DNA from: Deltaproteobacteria bacterium
GTDB taxonomy: Bacteria > Desulfobacterota > Binatia > UBA12015
Assembly (NCBI GenBank): GCA_016874795.1
Contig: VGTG01000004.1
Coordinates: 11,734 to 75,733, forward strand
Direction of reading: 5' to 3'
Length of the DNA: 64,000 bases
Under the pieces are notes generated by a model. That model made no database searches and was not told where the DNA came from. It was given only the letters and a program-made list of their open reading frames with translations. Within the stretch, counting starts at the first letter, position 1. Every line of letters starts with the position of its first letter. The translations under genes and the position numbers were made by a program. Below are positions 21,533 to 53,317 of the stretch, piece after piece.

Positions 21533-22821
21533 GCGCGCTCACCGGCATCCGCGTGATCGAGCTCGCGCACGAGCGCATCGCGTTCGCGGGAAAGCTCCTC
21601 GGCGACATGGGCGCGGACGTCGTACTCGTCGAGCCTCCGGGCGGCGCGCCCATGCGCCTTCACGAGCCCTTCGTCGACGACGTCCCGGATTCCGAGCGAA
21701 GCCTGACCTGGTGGCACTACAACACGAGCAAGCGAGGCATCGTCCTCGACTGGCGGCGGGGCGACGGCCGCGAGGCGCTCGCGTCACTCCTCGCCGGCGC
21801 GGACGTCCTTCTCGAGGCGGAGGATCCAGGAGCTCTCGCAGCGGTCGGGCTCGGCGACGCCGTGCTGACCGGCTCGCTTTCGCGACTCATCCACGTTTCG
21901 CTGACGCCGTTCGGGCCGACCGGCGAGCGGCGAAACGAGCGAGCCACCGATCTCACGCTCCTCGCGGGCGGCGGTCCGGCGTGGAACTGCGGCTACGACG
22001 ACCACGATCTGCCGCCGATCCGCGGCGGCGGCGGCCATGGCTACGCGATCGGATGTCACTATGCAGCGATGTCGACTCTGACCGCGCTTCTCCACCGGGA
22101 GCTCGGCGGGCGAGGGCAACGGATCGACGTGTCGATGCACGCCGCCGCGAACGTGACGACGGAGATGGGCTCGTACAACTGGCTCGTCCAGAAGCGGACG
22201 GTCCAGCGCCAAACCGGTCGTCACGCGATGGATACGCCCTCGATGCCGTCGCAGGTCCGCTGCGCCGACGGACGCTACGTCAACACCGGCGTTCCGCCGC
22301 GCACGCCGCAGGAGTTCGGCAGGCTTCTCGCGTGGCTGCGCGCGCTCGGGCTCGAGGCGGAGCTGCCCGAGGCCGTCTTTCTCGCCCTCGGCGCGGAGCG
22401 CGAGCGCATCGACCTCTCCAAGATCGGGTTCGACGACGAGACGACAGCGATCTTTGCCGCGGGCCGCGAGGCGCTCGTTCTGATCGCGAGTCGCGTCTCT
22501 GCGGAGGACTTCTTTCTCGGCGCACAGAGGGCCGGGCTGCCCGCCGGTGTGATCTACTCTCCCGAGGAGGCATTCGAGGATCCGCACTTCCGCGCGCGCG
22601 GCATGCAGATCGAGGTCGAGCAGCCGCAGCTCGGTCGGACGGTGCGCTACCCGGGACCGCCCTATGCCTTCGAGAAGAGCAAGTGGGCGATCTCACGCCC
22701 CGCTCCGACACTCGGTCAGCACACCGAGGAAGTTCTCTCCGACGCCGGGCTCGACGTCGCCTCCCTCTCGCGGAGCGGCGCTCTGGGGCGGCCCGCTGCC
22801 GTGCAAGCGAAGGACGGCTGA
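21529..22821 (+). CDS. Family III CoA-transferase (second, adjacent paralog)
   Basis: GIRVIELAHERIAFAGKLLGDMGADVVLVEPP. The GTG start overlaps the upstream stop. Confidence 0.8.
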   Translation: MSALTGIRVIELAHERIAFAGKLLGDMGADVVLVEPPGGAPMRLHEPFVDDVPDSERSLTWWHYNTSKRGIVLDWRRGDGREALASLLAGADVLLEAEDPGALAAVGLGDAVLTGSLSRLIHVSLTPFGPTGERRNERATDLTLLAGGGPAWNCGYDDHDLPPIRGGGGHGYAIGCHYAAMSTLTALLHRELGGRGQRIDVSMHAAANVTTEMGSYNWLVQKRTVQRQTGRHAMDTPSMPSQVRCADGRYVNTGVPPRTPQEFGRLLAWLRALGLEAELPEAVFLALGAERERIDLSKIGFDDETTAIFAAGREALVLIASRVSAEDFFLGAQRAGLPAGVIYSPEEAFEDPHFRARGMQIEVEQPQLGRTVRYPGPPYAFEKSKWAISRPAPTLGQHTEEVLSDAGLDVASLSRSGALGRPAAVQAKDG

Positions 22822-27106: not shown

Positions 27107-28297
27107 GTGAAGCTCCGTCTGACGAGGGCACAGGAAGAGCTGCGAGACTCGCTGCGGGCCTTTCTCGATGCCGAGCTCCCGCCCGAGCACGAGGAGGGGC
27201 CGGAGTCCGCGGAATGGGCGCCCGACGAGGAGTACGAGTGGATCCGTGCGTTCAACCGCCGCATGGGAGCGGCCGGGTGGCTCGTGCCGCACTGGCCGGT
27301 CGAGTACGGCGGCCGCGGCCTCGGGATCCTGGAGCAGGTGATCGTGCGGGAGGAGCTCGCCTACCGGCGTGCTCCGCTCATCAATCCGAACGGGCTCTCG
27401 ATGCTCGGTCCCATCCTGATGAAGGAGGGAACGGAAGAGCAGAAGGCCCTCCACCTTCCAGGCATCGCGAGCGGCGATGTGATCTGGGCGCAAGGCTACT
27501 CCGAGCCCAACGCCGGCTCGGACCTGGCAGCCCTGCAGATGCGCGCCGAGCGCGACGGAGACGAGTACGTCCTGAACGGCCAGAAGACCTGGACGAGCTC
27601 TGGGATGCGGGCGCAGTGGATGTTCCTCCTCGCGCGGACGTCGAAGGAGAAGCGCCGGCAGGAGGGCATCACGTTTCTCCTCGTCGACATGCGCACGCCG
27701 GGAATCGAGGTCCGGCCGATCGCCTCGATGACCGGAACCGTCACGTTCGCGGAGGAGTTCTTCACCGACGTCCGCGTCCCCATCGAGAACCGCGTCGGAG
27801 AGGAGGGCGACGGTTGGAGAGTCGGGAAGTCGCTCCTCTCCTTCGAGCGCTCGAACATCGCGCGCGCGGCGCGCGAGCGCCGCATCCTCGACGATCTGAT
27901 TGCGTACTGCCGCACGCAGGCGGGAACCCTTCGCGATCCGCTCGCCGACCCGATCGCGCGAAGCGAGCTCGGCCGCATGATCGAGCGCGTCGAGGTGGGC
28001 CGGGCGATCTGCTACCGCGTCGCGGCGATGCAGGCGGAAGGTCACGTGCCGCCGCACATGGCCTCGATCTCGAAGCTCTATCATTCGGAGTTCGCGGCAG
28101 AGCTGGTCGACGTGGGATCGCGCCTCCTCGGCGAGTATGGAAACGTCATGCCGGGCGACCCTCATTGCCTGGCTCGCGGCCAGTTCAGCCTCGGAGTGAT
28201 GAAGCAGCTTCTCCACAAGATTGGCGCCGGAACGAGCGAGATCCAGCGCGACATCATCGCACAGACCGGCGCGCAGCTGCCGAAGTCGGCCAGGTGA
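27107..28297 (+). CDS. Acyl-CoA dehydrogenase
   Basis: Three-domain ACAD (QGYSEPNAGSDLA..., QKTWTS, C-terminal catalytic Glu region IGAGTSEIQRDIIA). GTG start. Confidence 0.85.
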   Translation: MKLRLTRAQEELRDSLRAFLDAELPPEHEEGPESAEWAPDEEYEWIRAFNRRMGAAGWLVPHWPVEYGGRGLGILEQVIVREELAYRRAPLINPNGLSMLGPILMKEGTEEQKALHLPGIASGDVIWAQGYSEPNAGSDLAALQMRAERDGDEYVLNGQKTWTSSGMRAQWMFLLARTSKEKRRQEGITFLLVDMRTPGIEVRPIASMTGTVTFAEEFFTDVRVPIENRVGEEGDGWRVGKSLLSFERSNIARAARERRILDDLIAYCRTQAGTLRDPLADPIARSELGRMIERVEVGRAICYRVAAMQAEGHVPPHMASISKLYHSEFAAELVDVGSRLLGEYGNVMPGDPHCLARGQFSLGVMKQLLHKIGAGTSEIQRDIIAQTGAQLPKSAR

Positions 28298-29071: not shown

Positions 29072-29126
29072 CGAGCCTCCGATGCAGGCTTTCGCCATAT
29101 TGTGCGATGAAACAAAAGTTGATTAT

Positions 29127-30329
29127 ATGTCCGATGTGTCGGTTTCCGGCAACTTCGACTTCCGCCCGGACGACGCCGGATGGTACCTCGGCGATCCGCA
29201 CGCCGCGTACCGGCGGCTCCGTCGCGAGGCTCCGTTGCACTGGTATGAGCCCGATCGCTTCTGGTTTCTCACCAAGCACGCCGACGTCTTCGCGGTGTCG
29301 AAGGACCCGGCGACCTTCTGCAGCAGCAAGGGGTTCCGGATCCACGACAACCTGCGCACGGGGGGCGGCATCGAGGGGATTCCGCCGTCGATCCTCGGCA
29401 TGGACCCTCCCGATCACACGCGATACCGAGGACTCGTCAGCCGCTTTTTCACGCCGCGCTCCATGAACCACATCGAGGAGCGGATTCGCGAGATCGCCCG
29501 CGAGGCGCTCGATCGGATCGAGACCGGAAAGGTCGTCGACTTCGTCGAGCTCGTCTCGGTCCCGCTACCCGTTCTCGTGATTGCGGAGCTCCTGGGCGTT
29601 CCGCTGGAAGATCAGAAGAAGTTCAAGGAGTGGTCCGACGATCTCATCGCGGCGAACGACGGGAACATGGAGGCGGTCGGACGCGTCGCGGACCTCTTCG
29701 CGTACATGATCGGGCATGCACTCGATCGACGCAGTGCGCCGCGGGACGATCTCCTCACGGTCGTCGCGACGGGCGAGCCGAACGGTCGCCTTCTGGACGA
29801 CATGGAGCTCGGTATCTTCGGCGTCTCGCTCCTCGGTGCGGGGAACGAGACCACGCGCAATGCGATCTCCGGCGGCGCGATCGCGCTCATGGAGAACCCC
29901 GAGCAACGGGCCCTTCTCGTCGAAGACCCGTCGCGGATCGCAAGTGCGGTCGAGGAGATCGTGCGCTGGGTTTCGCCGATCAAGTCCTTCGCGCGTACCG
30001 CCACGTGCAATACCGAGATCCGGGGCCAGCGGATCGCGGCAGGGGATTTCGTGGTGCTGAGCTACACCTCCGCGAACCGCGACGAGGAGGTCTACGGTCC
30101 CACCGCTGAAGAGCTCGACGTTCGTCGTACCGGAGCGGCAGCACATCTGGGCTTCGGCGTGGGACAGCACTTCTGCCTGGGAGCCCATCTCGCGCGGCTC
30201 GAGCTCAAGATCCTCTTCGAGGAGCTGCTCGCGCGCTTTCCGCGATTCGAGCTCGCCGGAGAAGTGCAGAGGCTTCGCTCCACGCTCATCAACGGCGTCG
30301 AGCACCTCCCCGTCGTCTTCTCGTCCTGA
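29127..30329 (+). CDS. Cytochrome P450
   Basis: Heme-thiolate loop FGVGQHFCLGAHLARLE, I-helix GAGNETT, K-helix EEIVRW. Confidence 0.85.
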   Translation: MSDVSVSGNFDFRPDDAGWYLGDPHAAYRRLRREAPLHWYEPDRFWFLTKHADVFAVSKDPATFCSSKGFRIHDNLRTGGGIEGIPPSILGMDPPDHTRYRGLVSRFFTPRSMNHIEERIREIAREALDRIETGKVVDFVELVSVPLPVLVIAELLGVPLEDQKKFKEWSDDLIAANDGNMEAVGRVADLFAYMIGHALDRRSAPRDDLLTVVATGEPNGRLLDDMELGIFGVSLLGAGNETTRNAISGGAIALMENPEQRALLVEDPSRIASAVEEIVRWVSPIKSFARTATCNTEIRGQRIAAGDFVVLSYTSANRDEEVYGPTAEELDVRRTGAAAHLGFGVGQHFCLGAHLARLELKILFEELLARFPRFELAGEVQRLRSTLINGVEHLPVVFSS

Positions 30330-31683: not shown

Positions 31684-33287
31684 CGGTGCGCGGCGGGATC
31701 CCGGATCCCGGCTATGACACGTTTCCCGCCATGCTGCGCCACCTCTGCGAGCGGTTCGGCGCTCGCGAGTGCGTCGTGATCGGAGACGACCGGCTCCGCT
31801 TCGCGGAAGCGGACGCCGCGTCGGCGCGACTCGCGCGGCGGCTTCTCGCGAGCGGCGTCGGGAAGGGGACCCGCGTCGGACTTCTTGCTCCGAACGGTCC
31901 GGATTTCGTCATCGGGATGCTCGCCGTCTGCCGGCTCGGCGCGATCCTCGTACCCATCAATACCTTCTTTCAGGCAGACGAGCTCGCATGGACGCTTCGC
32001 CATGCCGACGTGCAGACGCTGCTGACGGTGCCGCGGCTCCTCTCACACGACTACCTGGCCCGACTCGAGGAAGCGGTGCCGGGCCTTCGCTCGGCCGCGG
32101 GACCAGACCTGCTCCTCCCATCGATGCCGTACCTCCGGCAGATTCGCGTGCTCGGAGAGAGCGACCGTCGCTGGTGCCGAACGGAAACGCGCGCCGAGGA
32201 TGCCGGCTCTCCGATGGTCGATGCGGACCTGCTCGACGCGATCGAGGCTCGAGTGTGCACGTCCGACGAAGCGCTCATCATCTACACCTCGGGCAGCACG
32301 GCCGAGCCGAAGGGTATCGTGCACACGCAAGGAGCGCTCGTCCGGCACGCCTGGTGGCTCGGTCGGGAGCACGGCTTCGTCCCGGAAGATCGCGTGTTCA
32401 CGCCGAACGCTTTCTTCTTCATAGGCGGCTTCGTGTTCAGCTTGCTCGCGCCCATGCAGATGGGCGCGTGCCTGATCTGCGAGGAGCGCTTCGAGCCCGG
32501 CGAGACCCTCGCGCGAATCGAGAGGGAGCGGGCGACGATCGTCACCGGGTGGCCGCACTACGGTCCGGCGATGGCGCGACACGAGAGCTTCTTGCGAAGG
32601 GACCTCTCCGCCGTCCGTGCGGGCTATCTCTTCGAGATCTTGCCGCCAGGCGCCGTGCGCTTCCATTACAGCCTCGGGATGACGGAGACGTGCGGCTCGC
32701 ATTGCTTCTGGCCGCCGGAACGGGAGCTACCCGCGGGTTCGCTCGGCGTGGCCGTTCCCGGCGTCGAGCACGATGTGATCGATCCGGAGAGCGGCGCAGC
32801 GCTTCCGCCCGGGGAGCCCGGCGAGCTTCGCGTCCGAGGCTACACGGTGATGCAGGGCATGTATGGTCGCACGCGCGAGGAAGTGCTCGAGCCCGACGGC
32901 TGGTACCGCACCGGCGATCGCGTCACTCTCGACGAGAACGGTCACGTCTACTTCCACGGCCGCCTCGGCGACCTGATCAAGACGGGCGGTGCGAACGTCT
33001 CGCCGCAAGAGGTCGAGCGCGCTCTCGCGGAGCTGCAGGGCGTCCTCGAAGCGCACGTCGTCGGGCTACCGGACGCCGAGCGAGGTCAGCTCGTCGCCGC
33101 CGCGGTCGTGCTCGACGGAAGCGTCCCTCTCGAAGCGGACGAGCTCCGCTCGGAGCTTCGAGCGAAGCTGGCCGCCTACAAGGTCCCGAAGCGGTTCGAC
33201 TTCTTCGCGAAGCAGGACCTGCCGTACAAGGCGACCGGCAAGATCGACAAGCGAGCGCTCGTCGAGCGGATGGGGGGAAGCAGATGA
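31679..33287 (+). CDS. Acyl-CoA synthetase (AMP-forming, ANL superfamily)
   Basis: IIYTSGSTAEPKGIVHT is the P-loop/A3 motif, with YSLGMTE, and GWYRTGDR...GRLGDLIKTGGANVSPQEVE (A8 to A10). The GTG start overlaps the upstream stop. Confidence 0.8.
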
Positions 33288-34522
33288 GAGCCAACGCGAT
33301 GGATCGGGATCTGTCCCCGGACCTCCTCCTCGAACCGTCCATCATCGACGATCCGTACGACTTCTATCGTCGTCTCGTTTCGGAAGCTCCGGTGTGGCAC
33401 GTGCCCGGGACGGACATCGTGATCGTGAGCTCCTGGGAGGCCGTGACGCAGGTCGTGAACCGCGTCGAAGACTTCTCTTCGAACATCCACTCGATCCTTT
33501 GCCGGAGCGCGCTCGGCACCCCGGAGCTGGTCCCCATGGGATTCGGCGGTCTCCAGGCGCTCGCCACCGCCGATCCGCCGATGCACGGAGCGCATCGGAG
33601 CACGGTGTTTCCGGAGCTCGTCGCCCGCCGGATGGCCGGACTCCGAACGAGCATCGAAGCGCTCACGGAAGAGTGCCTCACCCACGCACTGTCGAAGCGT
33701 CGGTTCGAGGTGATGGGCGACCTGGCCAACCTGATCCCGATCCGGGTCGTGAGCCAGCTGATCGCCTTCCGGGGCGCGGACCCCGCGGCGCTGCTCGCCG
33801 CCGCATTCGACTCCACCGCGATGCTCGCCGCGACGCTACCGCTCGAGGGGATTCAAGCGCTCATGGCACGTACGGTCGACATCGCGACCTGGATCGCCGA
33901 CCAGCTGCAGCAATCCGTCATTCAGGGCGGGGAAGGAATCTTCGGAGTGATCGGCGCGGCCGTGGCCGCCGGGGAGATGGAATTCGACGCGGGGCTCGTC
34001 ATCCTGCACACGCTGCTGAGCGCCGGCGGCGAATCGACGACGAGCCTTCTCGGCAACGCGATCCACATGCTCGCTCTCGATCCGCGATTGCAGACTCGGC
34101 TTCGCACCGAGCCACACCTCGTCGTGCCCTTCATCGAAGAAGCTCTCCGGCTCGAGTCGCCATTCCGCTACCATCTTCGCCGCGCGAGTCGCGCGAGCGA
34201 GGTGCAGGGTGTCGGCATTCCAGCGGGATCGACGCTGCTGCTCTTCTGGGGTGCTGCCAACCGCGATCCGGCCGAGTTCGAGCGTGCCGACGACGTGATG
34301 CTCGATCGAGCCACTCCGAAGCACCACGTCGCGTTCGGACGGGGAATCCACTTCTGCGTCGGCGCGCCGCTCGCTCGCCTCGAGGCGGAGATCGTCCTCA
34401 CGCGGCTTCTTGCGCAAACCGAGCACTTCGAGCTCGATCCAGATGCCGTGCCCGAACGGGTCGACAGCCTGATGGTTCGTCGCTTCGACACCTTGCCGTT
34501 GGTGGCGGAGTTGAGCTCTTGA
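33284..34522 (+). CDS. Cytochrome P450 (second)
   Basis: FGRGIHFCVGAPLARLE, ESPFRY (EXXR/PERF region). Confidence 0.85.
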   Translation: MRANAMDRDLSPDLLLEPSIIDDPYDFYRRLVSEAPVWHVPGTDIVIVSSWEAVTQVVNRVEDFSSNIHSILCRSALGTPELVPMGFGGLQALATADPPMHGAHRSTVFPELVARRMAGLRTSIEALTEECLTHALSKRRFEVMGDLANLIPIRVVSQLIAFRGADPAALLAAAFDSTAMLAATLPLEGIQALMARTVDIATWIADQLQQSVIQGGEGIFGVIGAAVAAGEMEFDAGLVILHTLLSAGGESTTSLLGNAIHMLALDPRLQTRLRTEPHLVVPFIEEALRLESPFRYHLRRASRASEVQGVGIPAGSTLLLFWGAANRDPAEFERADDVMLDRATPKHHVAFGRGIHFCVGAPLARLEAEIVLTRLLAQTEHFELDPDAVPERVDSLMVRRFDTLPLVAELSS

Positions 34523-34534
34523 TGATCGGCCGTC

Positions 34535-36061
34535 TCAGGACGGATCGCCGACGAATATTGCGCGTACCTCGGGCTGGCTGACCTTGAGCGACGGCGTGCG
34601 CGGCAAGGCGGGCACGATCCGGATCTCGGCAGGGACCGCGTACGTCGCGAGGTGCTCCCGCGCGAACCGAAGGAGCGTTTCGCCGTCGACCACGGCGTCA
34701 TCATGCAGCTCGACGGCGGCGACGGGAATCTGACCGAGACGCGGGTCGGGGAGGCCAACCACGCAGGCGTCACGCACGGCAGGATGCGCGATGAGCGCTT
34801 GCACCACGTCGCTGGGCAGGATCTTGAAGCCGCCGCGCAGGATCGCATCGTCGTCGCGTCCGACGATCCAGAGGAAGCCGTCGGCGTCGATGCGGCCGAG
34901 ATCGGTCGTCCGCTGCCACGCACCTTCGCGAGCGGAGCGGACCTCGATCCGTCCGGTCTCGCCTTCGGAAAGGGGATCGCCCGACACCCCGTCGACGATG
35001 CGCACATCGCGTCCGGGCTGCGGGCGACCGACGCTTCCTCGCTTCGTCTCTCCCCACTCGCGGTGCAACGCGAGCGTCCAGCCGGCGACGCCGCCCGCAA
35101 ACTCGGTTGCGCCGTAGGAAGGAAGGACCGGGATCCCATAGCGGAGTTCGAACGCGAGCTGCACCTGCGGGTCGAGCTTCGCGGTCCCGGACGTGACGAC
35201 CTGGATGCTCGACAGGTCGGCCGGATCGACGTCCGCTTCCAGCACCATGCGCACCGCCGTCGGGACGAGGCTCACGGCGCGCGGGCGGTGACGGCGTACG
35301 AGATCGACCCACGACTCCACTGCGAAGCGTGGCAAGAGCGCGATCTTGCGACCCTCGCAGACGTTCAGGAGCGTGCGGAAGAGCCCCGACATGTGAACGA
35401 AGGGAGAGCTCACGATGGCGACACCCTTCGCGAGCCGCGGAGCGTCGTCGGCGTCGCCCTTGGTGGCGTAGTGGCTCTTCGCCGCCGTGATCGTGCGCTC
35501 GAAGGCCGCGCGCTCGAGCGGAATCCTCTTCGGCGGACCAGTCGTGCCGCTCGTCAGCATCTCGACCGCGACGCCGCGCGACGCCGCGCGGTGCGGCCCG
35601 CTGCCGGCGCGCTCGAGGCCGGGAGCGAGCCTCACGGGATCGAGAGGATCCCCGGTCAGGACGATGCCGACCGCCTTCGTTTCCAGCGCCGCTGCTCGGA
35701 TCGAAGCGCGCTCCCAGTCCTCGGCCGCCGCGAGAACGACCCGGGTGCGCACGTCCACGATGTCGCGTGCGACCTTCGCATCTCCCTGATGCGGGTTCAG
35801 CGTCACGATGCACCGCTCGGCCACGACGGCGCTGAGCATCGCGGCGACCATCGGCGGCGTGTTGCGCAGGAGCATCCCGATCGGTCCGTGCGGATCGGGG
35901 TCGGCCTTCGTCAGGATCTCGGCCAGCCCGTCGATCACACGGGAAAGGTCGCGCCAGGAATGCCACCTTCCCTCGAGCTCGATCGCCGGAGCGTCGGGGT
36001 CGATGGCAAGGATCGCGTGAACGCGCTCGGCGAGGGTGGCCGACGCCTCGCGCGCCGTCAT
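34535..36061 (-). CDS. Acyl-CoA synthetase / AMP-dependent ligase (second, divergent type)
   Basis: LTSGTTGPPKRIPL (A3), SYGATEFAG (A5), DLGRIDADGFLWIVGRDDDAILRGGFKILPSDV (A8-A10). The true start was chosen at MTAREAS. The stop overlaps the next ACAD start (ATGA). Confidence 0.8.
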   Translation of the reverse strand: MTAREASATLAERVHAILAIDPDAPAIELEGRWHSWRDLSRVIDGLAEILTKADPDPHGPIGMLLRNTPPMVAAMLSAVVAERCIVTLNPHQGDAKVARDIVDVRTRVVLAAAEDWERASIRAAALETKAVGIVLTGDPLDPVRLAPGLERAGSGPHRAASRGVAVEMLTSGTTGPPKRIPLERAAFERTITAAKSHYATKGDADDAPRLAKGVAIVSSPFVHMSGLFRTLLNVCEGRKIALLPRFAVESWVDLVRRHRPRAVSLVPTAVRMVLEADVDPADLSSIQVVTSGTAKLDPQVQLAFELRYGIPVLPSYGATEFAGGVAGWTLALHREWGETKRGSVGRPQPGRDVRIVDGVSGDPLSEGETGRIEVRSAREGAWQRTTDLGRIDADGFLWIVGRDDDAILRGGFKILPSDVVQALIAHPAVRDACVVGLPDPRLGQIPVAAVELHDDAVVDGETLLRFAREHLATYAVPAEIRIVPALPRTPSLKVSQPEVRAIFVGDPS

Positions 36062-37155
36062 GCGAGCGTCTCCTCGAGATGGCGGACGACGTCTTCGCGA
36101 AAGCCGCTCCGCTCTCCGAGAAGCGCCGTCAGCGTCGCGGCTCTTCGCAGGAAGAGATGGATGTCGTGCTCCCAGGTGGTCCCGATCCCGCCGAAGACCT
36201 GCAAGGCACCCTCCGGCACCTTGCGAAGATCGTCCAGAGCGGCGAACGCGGCCATCGAGGCGAGAGCACTCCGCTCCTCCCCGCTGGCGCGGGCCGCGCC
36301 CTGACAAAGAGCCCGAGCGACCTCCACGTGAGCGCGCAGGTTCACCAGGCGATGCTGGATCGCCTGAAAGCTTCCGATGGGGCGATCGAACGCGACCCGG
36401 GTCTTGGCGTACTCGACCGCGAGCTCGAGAGCCCGGTCGGCGACGCCGACGAGCTCGGCGCAACGCGCGATCGTCTCGAGGGAGAGTGCATCGCGCAGAA
36501 CCCTTCGCGCTTCGTCGTCCCGGGCGATCGGCTTCGCGTCGACGTCGCGCAGCCGGATCTCCGCGCACGGCGAGCCGTCGAGCAAGCGGAGCGCGCGTCG
36601 ATCCACGCCCGTCGTCTCGGCCTCGACCTCGTACAGGCCGAACGCGCCGTCTCGGGTCGTGGCACCGACGATCAGCCGCTCGGCTTCCCGTCCGTACGGA
36701 ACGAAGCGCTTCTCCCCGGTCAGGCGGAATCCGCCGTCGGCCTCGACCGCGACGGCGCTCGTCCGTAGGCGATCGCTCGTCCTCTCGCCCTCACCGTGCG
36801 CGAGAATCGCCAGCTCCGAAAACCTGGCCATCTGCGTCCCGCGCAGGATCGCTCGTCCGACTACGCAGGGAACGAGCGGCGTCGGCGCCAGCGCGCGTCC
36901 CGTTTCCTCCGCGATGGCGCAGAGCTGGGTCGCGCCGAGTGAACCTTCGGATTCGGCCGCGAACGGATCGATCTCGTGCCAGCCGAGACGCCTCATTCCC
37001 TCCCAGAGCGCGGGCGCATCGGCGAGCCCGTCCCCTTCGATGCACGCGCGCAGCGACGAGAGCGACCACTCGCGCCGAAGGAAGTCGGCGGCCGCTTCTC
37101 GGACCGCGATCCGTCGCTCTTCGGCTCCGGCGAGCTCTTCGAGGTTGCGAGTCAT
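36058..37155 (-). CDS. Acyl-CoA dehydrogenase family protein (shorter, about 365 aa), likely the partner subunit of the adjacent ACAD
   Basis: ACAD C-terminal helical domain (FDRPIGSFQAIQHRL...). Both ends overlap neighbouring genes by 4 nt. Confidence 0.8.
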   Translation of the reverse strand: MTRNLEELAGAEERRIAVREAAADFLRREWSLSSLRACIEGDGLADAPALWEGMRRLGWHEIDPFAAESEGSLGATQLCAIAEETGRALAPTPLVPCVVGRAILRGTQMARFSELAILAHGEGERTSDRLRTSAVAVEADGGFRLTGEKRFVPYGREAERLIVGATTRDGAFGLYEVEAETTGVDRRALRLLDGSPCAEIRLRDVDAKPIARDDEARRVLRDALSLETIARCAELVGVADRALELAVEYAKTRVAFDRPIGSFQAIQHRLVNLRAHVEVARALCQGAARASGEERSALASMAAFAALDDLRKVPEGALQVFGGIGTTWEHDIHLFLRRAATLTALLGERSGFREDVVRHLEETLA

Positions 37156-38372
37156 TTCCCCGTCCCGCTGCTGCGCGGCAGACCGAGGACACGCTCGGCG
37201 ATGACGTTGCGCTGGATCTCTGACGTGCCGCCGCCGATCGTCGCAGCGCGCATGATGAGGTAGCTGAGGGGGACGTTCCCGCCCTTCAGTGCGTGCGGGG
37301 ACCCGCGGACGAGCGCGGCGTACGGTCCGGCGAGATCCATCGCATAGTCGGCCATGGCCTGATCCAGCTCCGACGTGAGGAGCTTCGCGATCGAGACCTC
37401 GGGCCCCGGGGAAGCACCGCGGAGGCTCGCGGCGTTCGCGCGCGCGGCGAGGTTGCGCAGCGCCTCCACCCGGACGGCGAAGCGTGCGAGATGCTCGCGC
37501 ACGATCGGATCCTCCCACCGTGGCTTCTCGTCGACGGTGATCTCTCGAGCGAGGGCGACGAGGATCTCGAGTCGTCGCTCGATCCGACTCGTGCGGGAGA
37601 GTCCGGCGCGCTCGTAGCGCAGCGTGGAGTTCGCGATCCGCCAGCCGGCGTTCTGCTCGCCGACGAGGCACCGTCGCGGCACGCGGACCTCGTCGAAGAA
37701 CACCTCGTTGAACTCGGACCTGCCGCTGATCTGCCGCAGCGGGCGGACCGTGATTCCCGGGGTGCGCATGTCGACGAGGAAGCAGCTGAGCCCCTCGTGC
37801 TTCGGCGCGCTCGGATCGGTCCGCGCGAGGACGTAGCACCAGTCCGCGAGATGGGCCTTCGACGTCCAGACCTTCTGGCCCGTCAGGACGAATTCGTCTC
37901 CGTCGAGAACGGCGCGCGTGCGAATGGCCGCGAGATCGCTCCCGGCGCCCGGCTCGCTGAATCCCTGACACCAGACGTCGTCGCCGGAGAGGATCCTCGG
38001 CAGGAAGTGCCCCTTCTGCCAGTCACTTCCCCACTGGATGATCGTCGGCCCGATGTAGGCGATGGCGCTTCGGTTGATCGGGTCGGGCGCGCGCCGACGC
38101 GCCATCTCCGAATCGTAGATCATCTGCTGGACGAAGCCGGCATCGCGGCCGCCGTACTCCTTCGGCCAGGCGATGGCGACGAGCCCCGCTTCGAACAGCC
38201 GGCGTTGCCACTCGCGCTGGAACTCGACACGCGAAGCCTCGTCGCGTGGCCCCTCGTACTCGAGCGTTCCCCAGCCCGCGGGCAGGCACTCGTCGAGAAA
38301 TGCGCGTACCTCGGCGCGGAACGCCTCGTCCTCGTGTGTGAGGTGGAGCTCGAGATCCGCGCGCCGCTTCAC
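37152..38372 (-). CDS. Acyl-CoA dehydrogenase
   Basis: QGFSEPGAGSDLAAIRT, QKVWTS, IGGGTSEIQRNVIA. GTG start; both ends overlap neighbours by 4 nt. Confidence 0.8.
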   Translation of the reverse strand: MKRRADLELHLTHEDEAFRAEVRAFLDECLPAGWGTLEYEGPRDEASRVEFQREWQRRLFEAGLVAIAWPKEYGGRDAGFVQQMIYDSEMARRRAPDPINRSAIAYIGPTIIQWGSDWQKGHFLPRILSGDDVWCQGFSEPGAGSDLAAIRTRAVLDGDEFVLTGQKVWTSKAHLADWCYVLARTDPSAPKHEGLSCFLVDMRTPGITVRPLRQISGRSEFNEVFFDEVRVPRRCLVGEQNAGWRIANSTLRYERAGLSRTSRIERRLEILVALAREITVDEKPRWEDPIVREHLARFAVRVEALRNLAARANAASLRGASPGPEVSIAKLLTSELDQAMADYAMDLAGPYAALVRGSPHALKGGNVPLSYLIMRAATIGGGTSEIQRNVIAERVLGLPRSSGTGK

Positions 38373-40486
38373 GGTGGAAGATCCTCGAGCGTGCACTCGC
38401 CGAGCCGCGGCGGAGGCTGCAAGGGGATCGCCGGTCCTCCGACGAATCGCCATGCGAGCCCGACGAGCTTCGCTTCGGCGAGGTCGGGATCGGGATGGTC
38501 GACTCTCGGAAAGAAGCCGCGCGCCCGGAGGTGAGGATCCTCGACCAAGTCGGCGCCGCTCCAGGCCGGGCAGGCGCGCACGCCGGCGCGCTGGAGCGAG
38601 TGGAAGAGGTCATTGGCGGCGACTTTACGCGTGAGCTCATCGAGCGCGAATTCGATCGTACGGCGAGTCTCCCAGCGTCGGGACTCGTCGCTCCAGCTCG
38701 GCTCGCGGAGAATTTCCGGGTTGCCGAGCGCTTCGACGAGCGCTCTCCACTCGCTGTCGGACTGCACGGAGATCGCGATCCAGCGACCGTCGGCGGTCGG
38801 ATGGAAGCCGTGCGGAGCGTGCGGAGGACGATCGCTCCCGGCGGGTATCGTGCGCTTCTCGGCGAGCGACGCCTCGGCGATGAACTCTCCCACCTTGTCG
38901 GCGACGACCTCGGCCATGGAGAGATCGACGACGCCTCCGTGCCGGCGCCGGCCGAGAGCCCAGGCGGCGATCACGGTTGCCGCCGTGAGGGCAGAGAGCG
39001 GGTCGGCGATCACGGTTCCGACGTGAAGCGGAGCGCCGTCCGCGGCGCGCGTCAAGTGACTCAGCCCGCCGTAGGCGTGGACGTTGTTCGCGTAGGCGCG
39101 GTACCCGGCGAGCGGCCCGGACTGTCCGAAGCCCGAGATGCTGACGAAAAGGAGATCGCGACGCGCGGAGGCTTCCGCCGCGACGCCGAGGCGCGCCATC
39201 CGCTTCGATCCGAAGTTCTCGAGCACGACGTCGCTCCAGCACGCGAGCCGGGGCGCTGCCTCGGGCTCCGCCTCGACGTCGACGGCGATGCTCCGCTTCG
39301 AGTGGTTCGATACGGCGAAGTACGCACCTCGTTCCTTCCCGGGAACACCGTGCGCGAACGGGCCGGTCCGACGATAGAGATCGAGCCGCGCGAGGTCTTC
39401 GAAGCGAACGACTTGCGCACCCATCGCGCCGAGCAGGGCACCGGCGATCGGTGCGGCGAGAACGTGAGTGAACTCCGCGACGCGGAGCCGACGCAGACCT
39501 GCGCCGTTGGCATCCGTGTCGCCGACCTGGCTCGCGCTCGGTGTCCACGTGTACGGACGGCCGGGAAGGCGGGCAGCGACGTCGCCGAGCTTCGCGCTCT
39601 CGAGGAAGCCGCGCGATGCGAGCTGTGGAGAGGCGAGGAGATCGTCCGGAGTGTTGACGGGCGTCGCCGGAACCCCGTGCGCTTGGAGTCTCTCGGCGCA
39701 GTCGTGGATGCCGAACGCCGCGGTCCAGCTCTCGATCTCGCGATTGATCGCCTCCGCGTTCGTTGCGCGGGCCTCGCGGCCTTCGAAACCGCGCGTCCAG
39801 CCGGGAGTTCCGAGAGCGCGAACGAGCCCTGCCCATTGATGGTCGTCGGGTGCGGTGATCCGAACGAATCCGTTGCGGCAGCGAAAGAGGCCGGAGGGTG
39901 CGACGTAACGGCCGCTACCTGCGCGTCCGGGGCACGCGTAGATCGCATGCGCGCACTCCGGCAAGGCGCCGAGCATCGCCACGGCTTCCTGCGCGGACAC
40001 GTCGACGTGCACGGGGCGGCCGGTCTCGCGTCTCCGGTCGAGCCCGTGGAGCGCCGCGAGCGCCGCGACCTGCCCGGTCGCGAGCAGCCCCTGGAAGCCC
40101 GGCAGGAGGGAAGGGCGTCCGCCGTCGCGGGGTGCGATCGTCGCAGCGAGACCGCCGGCGGCCGAGGAGACGAGCTCGGAGCCGAGGTACTTCGAGTACG
40201 GGCCCGTCAGGCCGAACGCCGTCGTCGTCACCCAGACGCCCTCGTCGTGGCGCTCGACGAGACGGACGTACTTCGCGAGGTCGCGAGGCAGACCGGCGTC
40301 GTCGACGACGCGATCGCAGACGATGATGTCGGCGCCGGCGAGAAGTCCCGAACCGAGCGAAGCTTCCCGTGTCGTCTTGTCGCGATCGAGGAGGGCGCTC
40401 AGGATCGAGATCCGACCGCCCGAAGAGGTCGCGAGGTTCGGCGCGTAGGCCGGCGGGACACTCGCCGCGGGCACGAGCTTCGTCAC
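38369..40486 (-). CDS. Tandem-fused family III CoA-transferase (two CaiB/BaiF-like modules in one 705-aa polypeptide)
   Basis: The first module has GADIIVCD... and the second starts at about residue 330 with LRVAEFTHVLAAPIAGALLGAMGAQVVRFE (the Rossmann N-motif repeated). The exact start is uncertain. Confidence 0.75.
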   Translation of the reverse strand: MTKLVPAASVPPAYAPNLATSSGGRISILSALLDRDKTTREASLGSGLLAGADIIVCDRVVDDAGLPRDLAKYVRLVERHDEGVWVTTTAFGLTGPYSKYLGSELVSSAAGGLAATIAPRDGGRPSLLPGFQGLLATGQVAALAALHGLDRRRETGRPVHVDVSAQEAVAMLGALPECAHAIYACPGRAGSGRYVAPSGLFRCRNGFVRITAPDDHQWAGLVRALGTPGWTRGFEGREARATNAEAINREIESWTAAFGIHDCAERLQAHGVPATPVNTPDDLLASPQLASRGFLESAKLGDVAARLPGRPYTWTPSASQVGDTDANGAGLRRLRVAEFTHVLAAPIAGALLGAMGAQVVRFEDLARLDLYRRTGPFAHGVPGKERGAYFAVSNHSKRSIAVDVEAEPEAAPRLACWSDVVLENFGSKRMARLGVAAEASARRDLLFVSISGFGQSGPLAGYRAYANNVHAYGGLSHLTRAADGAPLHVGTVIADPLSALTAATVIAAWALGRRRHGGVVDLSMAEVVADKVGEFIAEASLAEKRTIPAGSDRPPHAPHGFHPTADGRWIAISVQSDSEWRALVEALGNPEILREPSWSDESRRWETRRTIEFALDELTRKVAANDLFHSLQRAGVRACPAWSGADLVEDPHLRARGFFPRVDHPDPDLAEAKLVGLAWRFVGGPAIPLQPPPRLGECTLEDLPP

Positions 40487-40606
40487 GGACGCGCCGAGGC
40501 TTCGAAGGATCGCCGTGCAGCTCGCGCCGGCGATGCCGGATCCGAGCTCGACGACCCGGATTCCGCTCAGCGCCGCGAAGGAAGGAGTGTCCGTGGAACC
40601 CTCGGT

Positions 40607-41257
40607 CTAGGTGAGTCCGCGGATCACGTGCTCCCGGAAGAAGCGTCGCCAGGTCTCCGGATCGGATCCGTTGAAGGTCACCGCGGGCATCGACGAGATC
40701 GTGAACAGCATCCGCCCGATCCACTCGGAGGCCCGTCGCGCGTTGACGTTGCTCCGCAGCTCTCCTCGCTTGATCGCCGCTTCGACGAACGGCACGAGGA
40801 ATTCGACCGTGTCGCGGAGGAGGGGCTCGGAGTGGCTCGTGAGCAGCATCGCGAGTCGCTCCCGACTCACGTCGATCCGACTGCGAGCGCCGCTCGCGAC
40901 GTCGTGCTCGAACGAGGAGAGGATCCCTGCGCATTCCACGACCTGCTCTTCGAGCGTGGCGAGGCTCTCGAGCTGCTTCCGCATGCTGTCGTGGAACAGA
41001 TGGCTCTCGTACGCGAAGACGGCCTCGATCAGCTCGGCGCGCTCCGTGAAATAGCGATAGACGGTCCCACGCGAGAGATTCGCAGCCTTTGCGACGTCGG
41101 AGATGGACGTCTTCTCGGTTCCGAAGCGGAGAAAGCATGCACGCGCGGCGCGAAGGATTTGCTCGCGGACGCGCTCCTGCGCCGATTCGGGAACGGTCGC
41201 GACGGGAGCCGTCGTCGCGGACGGCGTGCGAACCTTTCGAGCTTGGCTGGCGCCCAT
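40607..41257 (-). CDS. TetR-family transcriptional regulator
   Basis: ISDVAKAANLSRGTVYRYFTERAEL is a TetR HTH. Confidence 0.8.
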   Translation of the reverse strand: MGASQARKVRTPSATTAPVATVPESAQERVREQILRAARACFLRFGTEKTSISDVAKAANLSRGTVYRYFTERAELIEAVFAYESHLFHDSMRKQLESLATLEEQVVECAGILSSFEHDVASGARSRIDVSRERLAMLLTSHSEPLLRDTVEFLVPFVEAAIKRGELRSNVNARRASEWIGRMLFTISSMPAVTFNGSDPETWRRFFREHVIRGLT

Positions 41258-41312
41258 GAGGCGATGCTACAGGATTTGACTCATTGTCTCAACGACGACT
41301 ACGCTGCCCGGC

Positions 41313-42218
41313 ATGGGTGAGCTCGATCGTCGCGTCGTCGTGGTGACGGGAGCCGGCCGTGGCATCGGTGCGGCCGTCGCCGAGGGTCTCGCTGCCGAAG
41401 GCGCGAGGGTCGTGGTCAATGACCTCGGCGTCGCTCTCGACGGGTCGACTCCCGAGGACGGGCCTGCGCACGAAGTCGCGGCCCACATCCGGGGGGCCGG
41501 AGGCGAGGCGATCGCCGATGCGAGCGACGTCACGGACTTTGCGGCGGCCGAGCGACTCATCGCGAAGGCGGTGCAGGAGTTCGGCCGACTCGACGTCCTG
41601 ATCAACGTCGCCGGCATCCTGCGCGACGGGATGATCTTCAAGATGGCGGAGGAGCAGTGGGACGCCGTGATCGACGTCCATCTGAAGGGCACCTTCAACA
41701 CCACCCGGCACGCTTCGGCGTACTGGAGGGAGAACCGCGGCGGAGAGTTCCGGCTGATCAATTTCACCTCAGCTTCGGGCCTCTATGGTGCGCCGTCCCA
41801 GCCCAACTACGCCGCCGCGAAGATGGGCATCATCGGGCTGACGTTCTCGTGCGCGAACGCGCTTCGGCAGTACGGAGTGACGTCGAACGCGGTCTCGCCC
41901 ATCGCGACCACGCGGATGACCATGACCGTCGACAAGGGCCGGGCCATCGGACGCTACACGCCAGAGAACGGGCGCCTCGACGCGAGGAATGTGGTCCCGG
42001 CCGTCGCCTATCTCGCGAGCGAGCGGTCGGGATGGCTGAACCGTCGCGTGATCACCGCGGGCAACGGTCGGATCGGTTTGATGAACGAGCCCGATCTGCA
42101 GCGGGAGATCACCGCCTCGAGCGGCGTCTGGGACGTCCCGACGGCGTTCGCGGAGATCGAGGACTCGTTCCGCGCGGCGGTCCAGCATCCGAACATCTTC
42201 GATCGTCCGCGCGGCTGA
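41313..42218 (+). CDS. Short-chain dehydrogenase/reductase (SDR)
   Basis: VVVTGAGRGIGAA Rossmann motif, NVAG, YAAAK catalytic motif. Confidence 0.85.
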   Translation: MGELDRRVVVVTGAGRGIGAAVAEGLAAEGARVVVNDLGVALDGSTPEDGPAHEVAAHIRGAGGEAIADASDVTDFAAAERLIAKAVQEFGRLDVLINVAGILRDGMIFKMAEEQWDAVIDVHLKGTFNTTRHASAYWRENRGGEFRLINFTSASGLYGAPSQPNYAAAKMGIIGLTFSCANALRQYGVTSNAVSPIATTRMTMTVDKGRAIGRYTPENGRLDARNVVPAVAYLASERSGWLNRRVITAGNGRIGLMNEPDLQREITASSGVWDVPTAFAEIEDSFRAAVQHPNIFDRPRG

Positions 42219-42235: not shown

Positions 42236-43282
42236 TCACGGAGTCTCCTTCGCCTCACCGAGCCACGCTTCGGCGAGCCGGGAGTACTGGAAGTGCTCGT
42301 CGCCGAGGACGACGCGGCCGAGCAACGCACGGCGCAGATGGACGTGCGGCATGGCTTCCCACGTCATGCCGATCCCGCCGTGCATCTGGATCGCCGTCTC
42401 GCAGACCTCGCGCGCGTGCTCGGACGCGTAGGCCTTCGCGGTCCGCGCCGCCTCGAGCGCGGCGCGTGGAGGCAGGGCATCGACCGCCCACGCCGCATGG
42501 AGCGCGCACCCCCGCGCCGCCTCGACCGAGACGAGCGCTTCCGCGGCCATGTGCTGCAGAGCCTGGAAGGTCGCGACCTTGACGCCGAACTGCTCGCGAT
42601 CGGAGGTGTAGGCGACCGCGCGATCGAGCGCCGCTTGCATGATGCCCGAGAGATCCGCGGCGAGAGCCGAAAGGGCGAGCGCGAGAGCGCGGTCTCGTGC
42701 CTCTGCCTCGAGCGGCTGTCCGAGGTGGCCGATCGCGAGAGGTCGTGAATCGCGCGGGACTCGCCGCAGCACGCGCGTCAGGTCCTGGCTCTCGAGCGGC
42801 GCGCCGAGCTCGACGACACCGATGTGGCCGCTCACGGGGTCGACAACGAGGCCTCCCACCGCACCGCCGGCCTCGAACGCGATCCCGTCCTCGCCCGCTC
42901 TTGCCCATCGCTGGAGCCGCACGTCGAGCACCGGTGCGAGACGAAGCTCGCCGGCTCCGAGCGAGCGCAGGACGTCCTCGGAGGCGCCCGCTTCGCGGAG
43001 GACCTGGCTCACGCACACCGCGGAGCCGATGAACGGAAGCGGCACGGAGAAACGGCCGAGCTGCTCTGCGACGAGCGCGATCTCGACGCCCGACGAGGGC
43101 GCTCCACCGACGAACTCCGGGAGTCGCATTCCGAGGAAGCCGACCTCGGCGAGCTTTTTCCACGAAGCCGAACCATCCGCGGGAGGTTCGAGGCTCGCCG
43201 GGGAGTCGGGTGCGAGCGCGCGTGCCAGCTGCTCCGCGGTTTCCTGGATCTGCCGTTGCTCGTCCGTCAGCCGGGCGTCCAC
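42236..43282 (-). CDS. Acyl-CoA dehydrogenase-like protein (short form, 348 aa)
   Basis: ACAD middle and C-terminal domains (REQFGVKVATFQALQHM...IQMHGGIG). Confidence 0.7.
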   Translation of the reverse strand: MDARLTDEQRQIQETAEQLARALAPDSPASLEPPADGSASWKKLAEVGFLGMRLPEFVGGAPSSGVEIALVAEQLGRFSVPLPFIGSAVCVSQVLREAGASEDVLRSLGAGELRLAPVLDVRLQRWARAGEDGIAFEAGGAVGGLVVDPVSGHIGVVELGAPLESQDLTRVLRRVPRDSRPLAIGHLGQPLEAEARDRALALALSALAADLSGIMQAALDRAVAYTSDREQFGVKVATFQALQHMAAEALVSVEAARGCALHAAWAVDALPPRAALEAARTAKAYASEHAREVCETAIQMHGGIGMTWEAMPHVHLRRALLGRVVLGDEHFQYSRLAEAWLGEAKETP

Positions 43283-47368: not shown

Positions 47369-48499
47369 ATGGATTTCGGATTCGACGAGCAGCAGAAGGC
47401 ACTCGCCGCAAGTGTTCGTGACGTGATCGATTCGAGATTCGGGATGGCCTACGTCCGCGGGATGCTCGACGATCCGCGGGGATTCTCGCTCGAGTTCTGG
47501 GCGGAGGCGGCGAAGCTCGGCTGGCTCGGACTTCTCGTCGAGGAGAGATACGGCGGGCTCGGGCTCGGTCCCCTCGAGATGGCCGCGGTGCAGCAGGAGC
47601 TCGGGCGAGGCGTGGTCCCCGGGCCGTACCTCGCGTCGGCGGTGCTCGCGAGCGTCGCTCTTCAGCGGTACGGCTCGGAGCGACAGAAGAAGCGCTGGCT
47701 CCCGTCGCTGGCGGCAGGCGACGAGATCGCCACTGTGGTTTTCCCGGAGGCTCATCGCGCGTCGGAGGAGGGCTTCGTCGGCTTCACCGCGGAGCGTCCC
47801 TCGCGAACCGCGTTTCGCGTGACGGGCGAGCAGCGCTTCGTCCTCGACGCGCACGTGGCGGATCTCGCCGTCGTGCCCGCGATCGCGGAGGAGGGAGTCA
47901 CACTCTTTCTGGTCGAGACATGCTCTCCGGGCGTAACCACGCAGCCGATCCGCACGATCGACGACACGCGGCGTCTGGCGACGATGCGTTTCGATGGGAT
48001 CGAGGTCGAAGCGAATCAGATTCTGGGAGAAGCGGGCGCGGGTCTCGTGCTCTTGGAGGCGGTCGCGGACGTCGGTCGCGTGGCGTTGTCCGCCGAGATG
48101 GTGGGCGGCGCCGAGCGAGCGCTCGAGATGTGCATCGATTACGCGCGCGTCCGCGAGCAATTCGGGAGGCCGATAGGCAGCTTCCAGGCGATCCAGCACA
48201 AATGCGCCGACATGCTCGTCCGCGTCGAAGGGGCTCGCGCGATGACTCTTGCGGCAGCAACTTCACTCGCACACGGAGACGCGGACGCGACTTCCGACGC
48301 GGGCATCGCAAAGTCGTGGTGCGGGGAGGCGTACCGGATGGTGACGACGGAGGGTGTGCAAATCCACGGCGGTCTCGGCTTCACATGGGATCTCGACATG
48401 CACCTGTTCTACAAGCGCGCCAAGTCGAGCGAGACGTCCCTTGGAGATGCGCGCTTCCATCGTGCACGCCTGGCCGAGCGGGCACTCGGGGAGAGCTGA
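47369..48499 (+). CDS. Acyl-CoA dehydrogenase
   Basis: MDFGFDEQQ..., FGRPIGSFQAIQHKCADM, IHGGLGFTWD. Confidence 0.85.
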   Translation: MDFGFDEQQKALAASVRDVIDSRFGMAYVRGMLDDPRGFSLEFWAEAAKLGWLGLLVEERYGGLGLGPLEMAAVQQELGRGVVPGPYLASAVLASVALQRYGSERQKKRWLPSLAAGDEIATVVFPEAHRASEEGFVGFTAERPSRTAFRVTGEQRFVLDAHVADLAVVPAIAEEGVTLFLVETCSPGVTTQPIRTIDDTRRLATMRFDGIEVEANQILGEAGAGLVLLEAVADVGRVALSAEMVGGAERALEMCIDYARVREQFGRPIGSFQAIQHKCADMLVRVEGARAMTLAAATSLAHGDADATSDAGIAKSWCGEAYRMVTTEGVQIHGGLGFTWDLDMHLFYKRAKSSETSLGDARFHRARLAERALGES

Positions 48500-53238: not shown

Positions 53239-53317
53239 GGCTTCCGTCAGATTGCACAAAAGAACAGTCTTTGTATAGTCATCCCGTCTGGCGGCGGAAA
53301 ACGGCTCGGAGGGACCC

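Follow-up and report, generated by a model that had tools for sequence, protein, structure and literature searches.

An operon with two adjacent acyl-CoA dehydrogenase genes

The DNA considered here is a 64,000-nucleotide window from a metagenome-assembled genome (MAG) of an uncultured Deltaproteobacteria bacterium (assembly GCA_016874795.1, contig VGTG01000004.1, positions 11,734 to 75,733), and all coordinates below are those of the window. Its minus strand carries an operon in which two acyl-coenzyme A (CoA) dehydrogenase (ACAD) genes stand side by side; the order, 5' to 3', is a fused CoA-transferase, ACAD1, ACAD2, and an acyl-CoA ligase, with a TetR gene just upstream. ACAD1 (37152..38372, minus strand, GTG start) encodes 406 amino acids and is the putative alpha, or catalytic, subunit of a heteromeric ACAD. 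ACAD2 (36058..37155, minus strand, ATG start) encodes 365 amino acids and is the putative beta subunit, which would be noncatalytic and would complete the site for flavin adenine dinucleotide (FAD). Public records label both proteins with nothing more than the generic name acyl-CoA dehydrogenase. Because the G+C content of the window (64 to 72%) makes spurious open reading frames abundant, a gene map was built from codon usage, and it independently returned the same coordinates for ACAD1 and ACAD2 within the minus-strand operon. The pair thus lies where an earlier note on this DNA, hereafter the original prediction, had placed it, and the downstream ACAD is the shorter one, as that note had said.

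Read directly from the DNA, a GTGA at 38369-38372 is common to the CoA-transferase stop and the ACAD1 start, an ATGA at 37152-37155 to the ACAD1 stop and the ACAD2 start, and an ATGA at 36058-36061 to the ACAD2 stop and the ligase start, so that the 4-nucleotide overlaps that had been noted on both sides of the pair are present in the raw sequence. Homologues of equal length, with the same 4-nucleotide overlap, support GTG as the start codon of ACAD1. The operon had also been thought to continue downstream into a tandem CoA-transferase and a ligase; the ligase is indeed downstream, whereas the CoA-transferase lies upstream, 5' of the pair. Overlaps of 4 nucleotides occur at 14 of the 37 same-strand junctions of the window and are therefore generic there. 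They show operon organization and not, by themselves, a heteromer, and we discarded them as evidence for one. The evidence that exceeds chance is the complementary residue pattern of the two proteins and the conserved pairing of their genes.

Similarity of ACAD1 and ACAD2 to opposite chains of solved heteromeric enzymes

All three ACAD Pfam domains are present in ACAD1. When it was compared with all PDB sequences, the best match was Tcur3483 (6wy8_B; 1.3e-60, 209 bits) and the second was ChsE4 (4x28_A; 4.3e-60, 207 bits). In the two heterotetrameric ACADs with solved structures, these are the chains of the catalytic alpha subunit. Below them, the best match reached 158 bits, and ordinary homotetrameric ACADs reached at most 137 bits. 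The best NCBIfam model was pimC_large (TIGR03204; 8e-89), with a score of 298 bits that falls short of the equivalog cutoff of 624.

In ACAD2, the C-terminal ACAD domain alone scored above its Pfam cutoff, the middle and N-terminal domains remaining below theirs. Its best PDB matches by sequence were Tcur3481 (6wy8_A; 7.9e-20) and ChsE5 (4x28_D; 3.9e-18). An AlphaFold2 model (pLDDT 93, pTM 0.93) was searched with Foldseek, and the top four matches were the beta chains 6wy8_C, 6wy8_A, 6wy9_B, and 4x28_C (E values of 7e-22 to 1e-19), followed by homotetrameric ACADs at about 2e-17. The best NCBIfam models, IpdE2 and pimD_small, both stayed below cutoff: IpdE2 (NF050027) scored 118 bits against a cutoff of 450, with the match limited to the C-terminal part, and pimD_small (TIGR03203; 1.5e-25) scored 90 bits against a cutoff of 653. 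Identity as a PimCD or IpdE2 equivalog was rejected on these score cutoffs.

Complementary losses in the FAD site

Residues were compared in an alignment of ACAD1, ACAD2, their partners from related loci, human MCAD, and the aligned parts of ChsE4, ChsE5, Tcur3483, and Tcur3481, the last four being stretches transcribed from the PDB search alignments. Conservation was counted over 121 homologues of the alpha and 114 of the beta subunit. In ACAD1, the residue predicted to act as the catalytic base, E254 (codon 37611..37613, minus strand), aligns with E247 of ChsE4 ('nhER' versus 'ryER') in the column of MCAD T255, which is the base position of the IVD/LCAD type. The flavin-side FAD motif S139-D146 (SEPGAGSD; 37935..37958, minus strand) is equivalent to MCAD T136-D143, and W169 and S171 are the retained equivalents of MCAD W166 and T168. 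G380-G381-G382 (37227..37235, minus strand) stand in place of MCAD Y375-E376-G377, which puts a Gly at the E376 position, and G380 aligns with the glycine of Tcur3483 that was mutated in PDB 6wy9 (the G363A variant). The contacts that a subunit makes to the FAD of its partner have been lost from ACAD1, where MCAD R281 is replaced by Ile, F284 by Asp, Q292 by Pro, Q349 by Asp, and G353 by Pro.

ACAD2 has the opposite pattern. Its partner-side FAD contacts are all present (R253, F256, Q264, Q319, G322, and G323); the segment R253-Q264 (RVAFDRPIGSFQ; 36364..36399, minus strand), equivalent to MCAD R281...Q292, would contact the ADP part of FAD, and R253, F256, and Q264 stand opposite I278, D281, and P289 of ACAD1. 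The ring-side motifs of ACAD2 are degenerate relative to MCAD, with GEGERTSD as the flavin-side motif, Phe for W166, Pro for T168, and Leu for E376.

The same division is found throughout the two families. Among the alpha homologues, S139, G144, S145, D146, W169, E254, R255, G380, G382, and T383 (ACAD1 numbering) are invariant (121/121), position 381 is Ala or Gly and never Glu, and the equivalents of MCAD R281, F284, Q292, Q349, and G353 are never or rarely canonical, the R281 equivalent being Arg in 0 of 121. In the beta homologues, R253, F256, Q264, Q319, and G322 (ACAD2 numbering) occur in 114/114 and G323 in 113/114, Trp is never found at the W166 position, Pro predominates at the T168 position, and the E376 position is occupied by Leu, Phe, Ala, or Val. 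In published heteromeric ACADs, the isoalloxazine is bound by alpha, which also provides the Glu and the site for the substrate, and the ADP-ribose is contacted by beta; the alpha2beta2 enzyme has two FAD and two active sites, and activity requires the heterotetramer (PMC11153573; PMC8399759). As judged from the alignment, the residue split between ACAD1 and ACAD2 matches this division of labor.

The original prediction had proposed alignment to ChsE1/ChsE2 and ChsE4/ChsE5 as the way to see which subunit retains the catalytic Glu and the FAD-binding residues; in the comparison with ChsE4 and ChsE5, ACAD1 keeps the Glu and the ring side and ACAD2 keeps the partner side. It had also named, as the outcome that would speak against a heteromer, that both proteins group with homotetrameric ACADs and that each has its FAD-binding and catalytic residues complete. 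The alignment and the PDB rankings gave a different outcome, and neither protein has the full FAD site and catalytic Glu that are expected of every subunit in a conventional homotetramer. The sequence-level features of the ChsE4-ChsE5/FadE26-FadE27 type, namely, adjacency, a single conserved Glu, split FAD contacts, and closest similarity to the solved chains, are all present.

ACAD1 also keeps a Pro-x-Pro segment ('aPdPi', corresponding to ChsE4 P89/P91), a feature that has been tied to helix unwinding and an enlarged substrate cavity (PMC11153573). The Pro-x-Pro segment and the invariant G380 resemble those of steroid-type alpha subunits, which suggests that the active site of ACAD1 may be roomy.

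Conserved pairing in other genomes

The order CoA-transferase, alpha, beta with 4-nucleotide overlaps recurs at three loci with about 57 to 71% beta identity: a 274-kb metagenomic contig (alpha 84% and beta 71% identical), a JGI contig (74% and 60%), and a Gemmatimonadota MAG (80% and 58%). Adjacency of alpha and beta is kept at 42 to 47% beta identity in two large MAG contigs and in Mycolicibacterium vanbaalenii, where the alpha gene is labeled 'putative FadE17'. Throughout the series, the beta subunit diverges faster than the alpha subunit (alpha/beta identities to the window pair of 84/71, 80/58, 65/44, and 61/42%), which fits a noncatalytic scaffold or partner subunit.

A scan with the beta alignment of one genome per GTDB species returned 80 loci. 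At 24 of these the order is alpha then beta, with alpha ending at the beta start; they belong to Gemmatimonadota, Mycobacterium, Dehalococcoidales, Chloroflexota, and Rokubacteria. Another 53, at 31 to 34% identity and from the Bradyrhizobium/Rhodopseudomonas group, have beta first and alpha immediately downstream and are probably a PimCD-like clade. One further locus has its alpha gene 430 nucleotides off, and two are interrupted by contig ends. The beta homologue therefore neighbors an alpha-type gene in all 78 of the loci that could be assessed. In a related MAG (locus L004, 5781-6956), the alpha partner has an aberrant truncated C terminus without GGGTSEIQ and is separated from beta by a 44-nucleotide gap; this looks like a frameshift or an assembly error rather than biology.

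A predicted alpha/beta heteromer and the alternatives to it

The chain rankings and the complementary FAD-site losses support the heteromer that the original prediction had suggested, and we consider it very probable (about 0.85, on the evidence of the sequences) that ACAD1 and ACAD2 form an obligate alpha/beta heteromeric ACAD of the ChsE4-ChsE5/FadE26-FadE27 type. In such an enzyme, the pockets for the substrate and for the flavin ring would lie in the alpha subunit, as would the catalytic base E254, which would take the alpha-proton of the acyl-CoA while the hydride passes to N5 of FAD. The beta subunit would have no working site of its own and would lend its Arg/Phe/Gln and Gln/Gly-Gly residues across the dimer interface to the ADP end of the FAD of alpha. 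Since neither protein alone has a complete FAD site, one FAD is expected per alpha-beta pair. The pair would be obligate, because an alpha-alpha dimer would be without partner-side contacts and a beta-beta dimer without ring pockets. Physical assembly, FAD count, and substrate are points that we infer, as is, solely by homology, an alpha2beta2 stoichiometry, which would have two FAD and two active sites.

The closest functional models are the solved enzymes themselves. ChsE4-ChsE5 (FadE26-FadE27) of M. tuberculosis (PDB 4X28) has the same alpha-then-beta order with the longer alpha (400/373 amino acids versus 406/365 here), its catalytic Glu in the same column, the Pro-x-Pro loop, no Glu at the MCAD E376 position, the Gly-rich 'GGGT' motif, and a beta subunit that keeps the partner-side FAD contacts only. 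The two systems differ in that the HMMER matches to ChsE4 and ChsE5 are limited to 207 and 69 bits (with 24% identity for the beta pair in Foldseek), in that the operon here has a fused CoA-transferase and a ligase and not cholesterol side-chain genes, and in that the pair comes from an uncultured deltaproteobacterial MAG in a window where no steroid-ring genes were found. Tcur3483-Tcur3481 of Thermomonospora curvata (PDB 6WY8/6WY9), the top-scoring solved relatives of both subunits, share with the pair the glycine of the 6wy9 G363A variant, which is the invariant G380 of ACAD1. Tcur3483-Tcur3481 is a steroid/bile-acid side-chain enzyme (PMC8399759).

Several observations weigh against the heteromeric reading or narrow it. 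ACAD2 favors the beta chains by a modest margin (74.6 and 69.1 bits, compared with 66.7 bits for a homotetramer). In Foldseek, every ACAD gave a TM-score of 0.80 to 0.85 against the ACAD2 model, so the fold search corroborates the assignment as beta without proving it. The residue comparison depends on the human MCAD sequence and on the list of its FAD contacts; the sequence used was confirmed to have a length of 396 and the landmarks Y133, T136, S142, W166, T168, T255, R281, Q292, Q349, G353, and E376. A Glu of ACAD2 (E227) falls in the column that holds the catalytic base of alpha. It was rejected as a second catalytic base and is judged noncatalytic because only 32 of the 114 beta homologues have a Glu there and because the subunit is without the flavin pocket and ring motifs. 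Finally, Pfam scans of 49 of the 59 window genes, in which steroid-specific models were not searched, found no KstD-, KshA-, Hsa-, or IpdAB-type family. Membership in a steroid cluster found no support from ring-degradation genes in these scans, and the link to steroids is thus an analogy that is silent on substrate. The sterol side-chain setting invoked in the original prediction likewise holds only as an analogy.

It is conceivable that the two genes encode independent conventional homotetrameric ACADs, paralogues that share an operon and differ in chain-length preference, given that both proteins have the ACAD fold, that operons with several ACADs are common, and that 4-nucleotide overlaps are widespread in the window. 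We regard this as very improbable, because each protein is without half of the canonical FAD site, the losses are complementary and invariant across the homologues of both families, ACAD2 is without a conserved catalytic base, and no assessable locus in the GTDB scan has the beta homologue away from an alpha-type gene. A somewhat less improbable, though still unlikely, possibility retains two subunits and changes the substrate: a PimCD-type dicarboxyl-CoA (pimeloyl-CoA) dehydrogenase would act on medium-chain dicarboxylates instead of a bulky or cyclic substrate. The pimC_large model tops the NCBIfam models for ACAD1, ACAD2 matches pimD_small, PimC and PimD are likewise a large and a small ACAD subunit, and loci from Rhodopseudomonas and Bradyrhizobium are among the distant beta relatives; growth on or other use of dicarboxylates depends on PimCD-like pairs, which may be heterotetrameric (PMC12543098). 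However, both scores are under half of the equivalog cutoffs, the Bradyrhizobiaceae relatives share only 31 to 34% identity and place beta before alpha, ACAD1 is matched equally well by solved alpha chains of the steroid type, and the gene context is unlike a pim operon, with CYP125/124/terp- and CYP144-type P450s, Rieske, SnoaL, amidohydrolase_2, and thiolase plus DUF35 genes.

The least probable of the alternatives, to which we give very little weight, is that ACAD2 is a nonenzymatic ACAD-like protein (a regulator, a chaperone, or the partner of another alpha subunit) and that ACAD1 uses a beta subunit encoded elsewhere. Four more ACADs in the window are unpaired, two of alpha type and two of beta type, and the family of one of the beta-type genes (47369-48499) is often solitary in other genomes. 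Exchange of partners has a precedent in M. tuberculosis, where FadE31 pairs with FadE32 or FadE33. Such alternative pairings would nevertheless add to the pairing of ACAD1 with ACAD2 and would not replace it, and the overlapping stop and start together with the strictly conserved adjacency make ACAD1 the obvious partner of ACAD2.

CoA-transferase, ligase, and regulator

The first gene of the operon (38369..40570, minus strand, start uncertain) encodes a fused two-domain family III CoA-transferase with two CoA_transf_3 stretches in Pfam. Its C-terminal half matches the benzylsuccinate CoA-transferase chain 9fn0_B (1.3e-37) and its N-terminal half matches chain 9fn0_A (4.3e-21), so that, by sequence, the protein looks like the two subunits of benzylsuccinate CoA-transferase joined in one chain. 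Identity as an alpha-methylacyl-CoA racemase, an enzyme that takes part in cholesterol side-chain breakdown, was rejected, the racemase Far matching at 2.6e-11 versus these values. The same fusion, of 703 amino acids, occurs in Mycolicibacterium vanbaalenii. The canonical start appears to have been lost, as the GTG of a 71%-identity locus (L001) is GCG in the window; the next canonical start, a GTG at 40486, would drop the conserved N-terminal GIRVVELGSGIAGA motif, and the start is likely a CTG at 40570, giving 733 amino acids. The open reading frame is in frame with that of the upstream TetR gene, with a single TAG between them. Family III CoA-transferases occur in the window as pairs, one being this fusion and the other a separate overlapping pair (20288-21532 and 21529-22821, plus strand) that is preceded by thiolase-like and DUF35 genes.

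The last gene of the operon (34535..36061, minus strand) encodes an AMP-forming acyl-CoA ligase of 508 amino acids with AMP-binding and AMP-binding_C domains, for which no NCBIfam equivalog cutoff was reached. With a CoA-transferase and a ligase in one operon, two routes to a thioester are encoded together with its dehydrogenation. The upstream BbsEF-like CoA-transferase and the downstream ligase would make the thioester substrate of the predicted heteromer, whose two subunits would be cotranslated under the control of TetR. The TetR-family regulator (40607..41257, minus strand; TetR_N, 3.9e-14) lies immediately upstream of the operon, a position that is conserved in L001 and in a JGI contig. 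A weak sigma-70-like promoter match (41264..41292, minus strand; 9/12 matches) lies in the divergent intergenic region between the TetR gene and a short-chain dehydrogenase/reductase (SDR) gene and is the sole promoter-like match in 34000-41600, where 0.3 would be expected in shuffled sequence.

The bbs operon for benzylsuccinate beta-oxidation (BbsEF, BbsG, BbsH, BbsCD, and BbsAB) offers a parallel in its two-subunit family III CoA-transferase, which is fused here, its ACAD, enoyl-CoA hydratase, SDR, and thiolase plus DUF35, and its sterically demanding acyl-CoA. It differs in that BbsG is a homomeric ACAD and in that the bbs pathway runs anaerobically and is not known to include P450 or Rieske oxygenases.

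The surrounding island and its possible substrate

The operon lies in an island of about 40 kb (about 16.6-57 kb) that encodes enoyl-CoA hydratases, SDRs, thiolase plus DUF35 pairs, further CoA-transferases, amidohydrolase_2 proteins, luciferase-like monooxygenases, a Rieske oxygenase, and three P450s. One of the P450s (29082-30329, plus strand) is CYP125/CYP124/P450terp-like, with its best match to an ancestral reconstruction of CYP125 (2.7e-100), followed by P450terp, CYP126, CYP125, and CYP124. P450s of the CYP125, P450terp, CYP126, and CYP124 types hydroxylate terminal positions in sterol side chains, in methyl-branched lipids, and in terpenoids. Another (33284-34522, plus strand) is like the orphan CYP144 of M. 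tuberculosis (1.8e-76); it is convergent with the operon and ends 12 nucleotides beyond the ligase. The island fits a route in which a bulky, probably branched or cyclic lipid is oxidized to an acid and then enters beta-oxidation, and operon and island together suggest that a carboxylic acid of bulky, branched, or cyclic structure is broken down by beta-oxidation.

In Mycolicibacterium vanbaalenii (locus L011), a 'FadE17-like' pair with identities of about 61% for alpha and 42% for beta lies in an uncharacterized module of the same content, with an amidohydrolase_2, alpha, beta, a P450, the 703-amino-acid fused double CoA-transferase, an enoyl-CoA hydratase, a 301-amino-acid SDR, a Rieske oxygenase, and DUF35 plus thiolase. 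The gene order there is different, alpha and beta overlap by 11 nucleotides rather than by 4, and 'FadE17' is a database name only.

The unpaired alpha-type ACADs of the window (27107-28297, plus strand, and 52099-53259, minus strand) have the ring-side motifs and a Glu at the ChsE4 position and are without partner-side contacts, and the unpaired beta-type ACADs (42236-43282, minus strand, and 47369-48499, plus strand) have the partner-side contacts only and no catalytic Glu. Two of each kind suggest separately encoded heteromers or alternative beta partners. In L001 and in a JGI contig, the beta-type gene of 348 amino acids is likewise found near the operon. In the family of 47369-48499, all 119 aligned members have Phe at the MCAD W166 position and keep the partner-side FAD contacts, and both catalytic-base positions are without Glu in every member. 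Relatives that share about 47% identity (loci L092, L093, and L094) are solitary or beside thiolase plus DUF35, without a nearby alpha-type ACAD, and a search of other genomes for a partner of 47369-48499 found none.

We also put forward a tentative proposal, to which we would assign less than even odds: the fused BbsEF-like CoA-transferase, the alpha/beta ACAD, and the ligase may be the core of a conserved, uncharacterized module (with amidohydrolase_2, CYP144- and CYP125-like P450s, the 301-amino-acid SDR, enoyl-CoA hydratase, Rieske oxygenase, and thiolase plus DUF35) that is common to the source MAG, Gemmatimonadota, Chloroflexota, and environmental mycobacteria and that would degrade a nonsteroid bulky carboxylate, for example, a terpenoid, hopanoid, or naphthenic acid. 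The unpaired ACADs might also assemble in a mix-and-match fashion with partners encoded elsewhere, giving several dehydrogenases.

The window has some other notable features. At the left edge of the island (14136-16148) there are a recombinase with Recombinase and zinc-ribbon domains and a fragment of a Mutator-family transposase that covers only positions 145 to 370 of the 379-position profile, which hints that the island was mobile in the past. At 53318-56333 (plus strand), a 2-oxoacid dehydrogenase of unusual layout has its E1 alpha and beta fused in 674 amino acids, followed by a free-standing lipoyl-domain protein of 79 amino acids and an E2 catalytic domain of 208, so that E2 is split; the JGI contig that carries the related operon also has an E1 with a similar fusion close by. 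Outside the island, one open reading frame of 596 amino acids (4891-6681, plus strand) joins PanB (ketopantoate hydroxymethyltransferase) and PanC (pantoate-beta-alanine ligase) domains.

Implications

Knowledge of the alpha2beta2 ACAD family goes back to 2013; structures have been solved, members are known in Actinobacteria and Proteobacteria, and large- and small-subunit ACADs are already in annotation libraries. Because every sequence-level feature that defines the family was found and no specific equivalog cutoff was reached, ACAD1/ACAD2 would belong to this known family, here from an uncultured lineage. The known enzyme mechanism is left unchanged, and the assignment is of value because it gives the genes a correct annotation and draws attention to a conserved, uncharacterized catabolic module. 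Reading the pair as one enzyme would halve the apparent dehydrogenase count in such genomes, predicts that neither protein works when expressed alone, and would mark the operon as one that handles a bulky or branched acyl-CoA. The alpha/beta design, best studied in steroid-degrading Actinobacteria and Proteobacteria, would thus also be used by uncultured lineages, in surroundings that have no demonstrable link to steroids.

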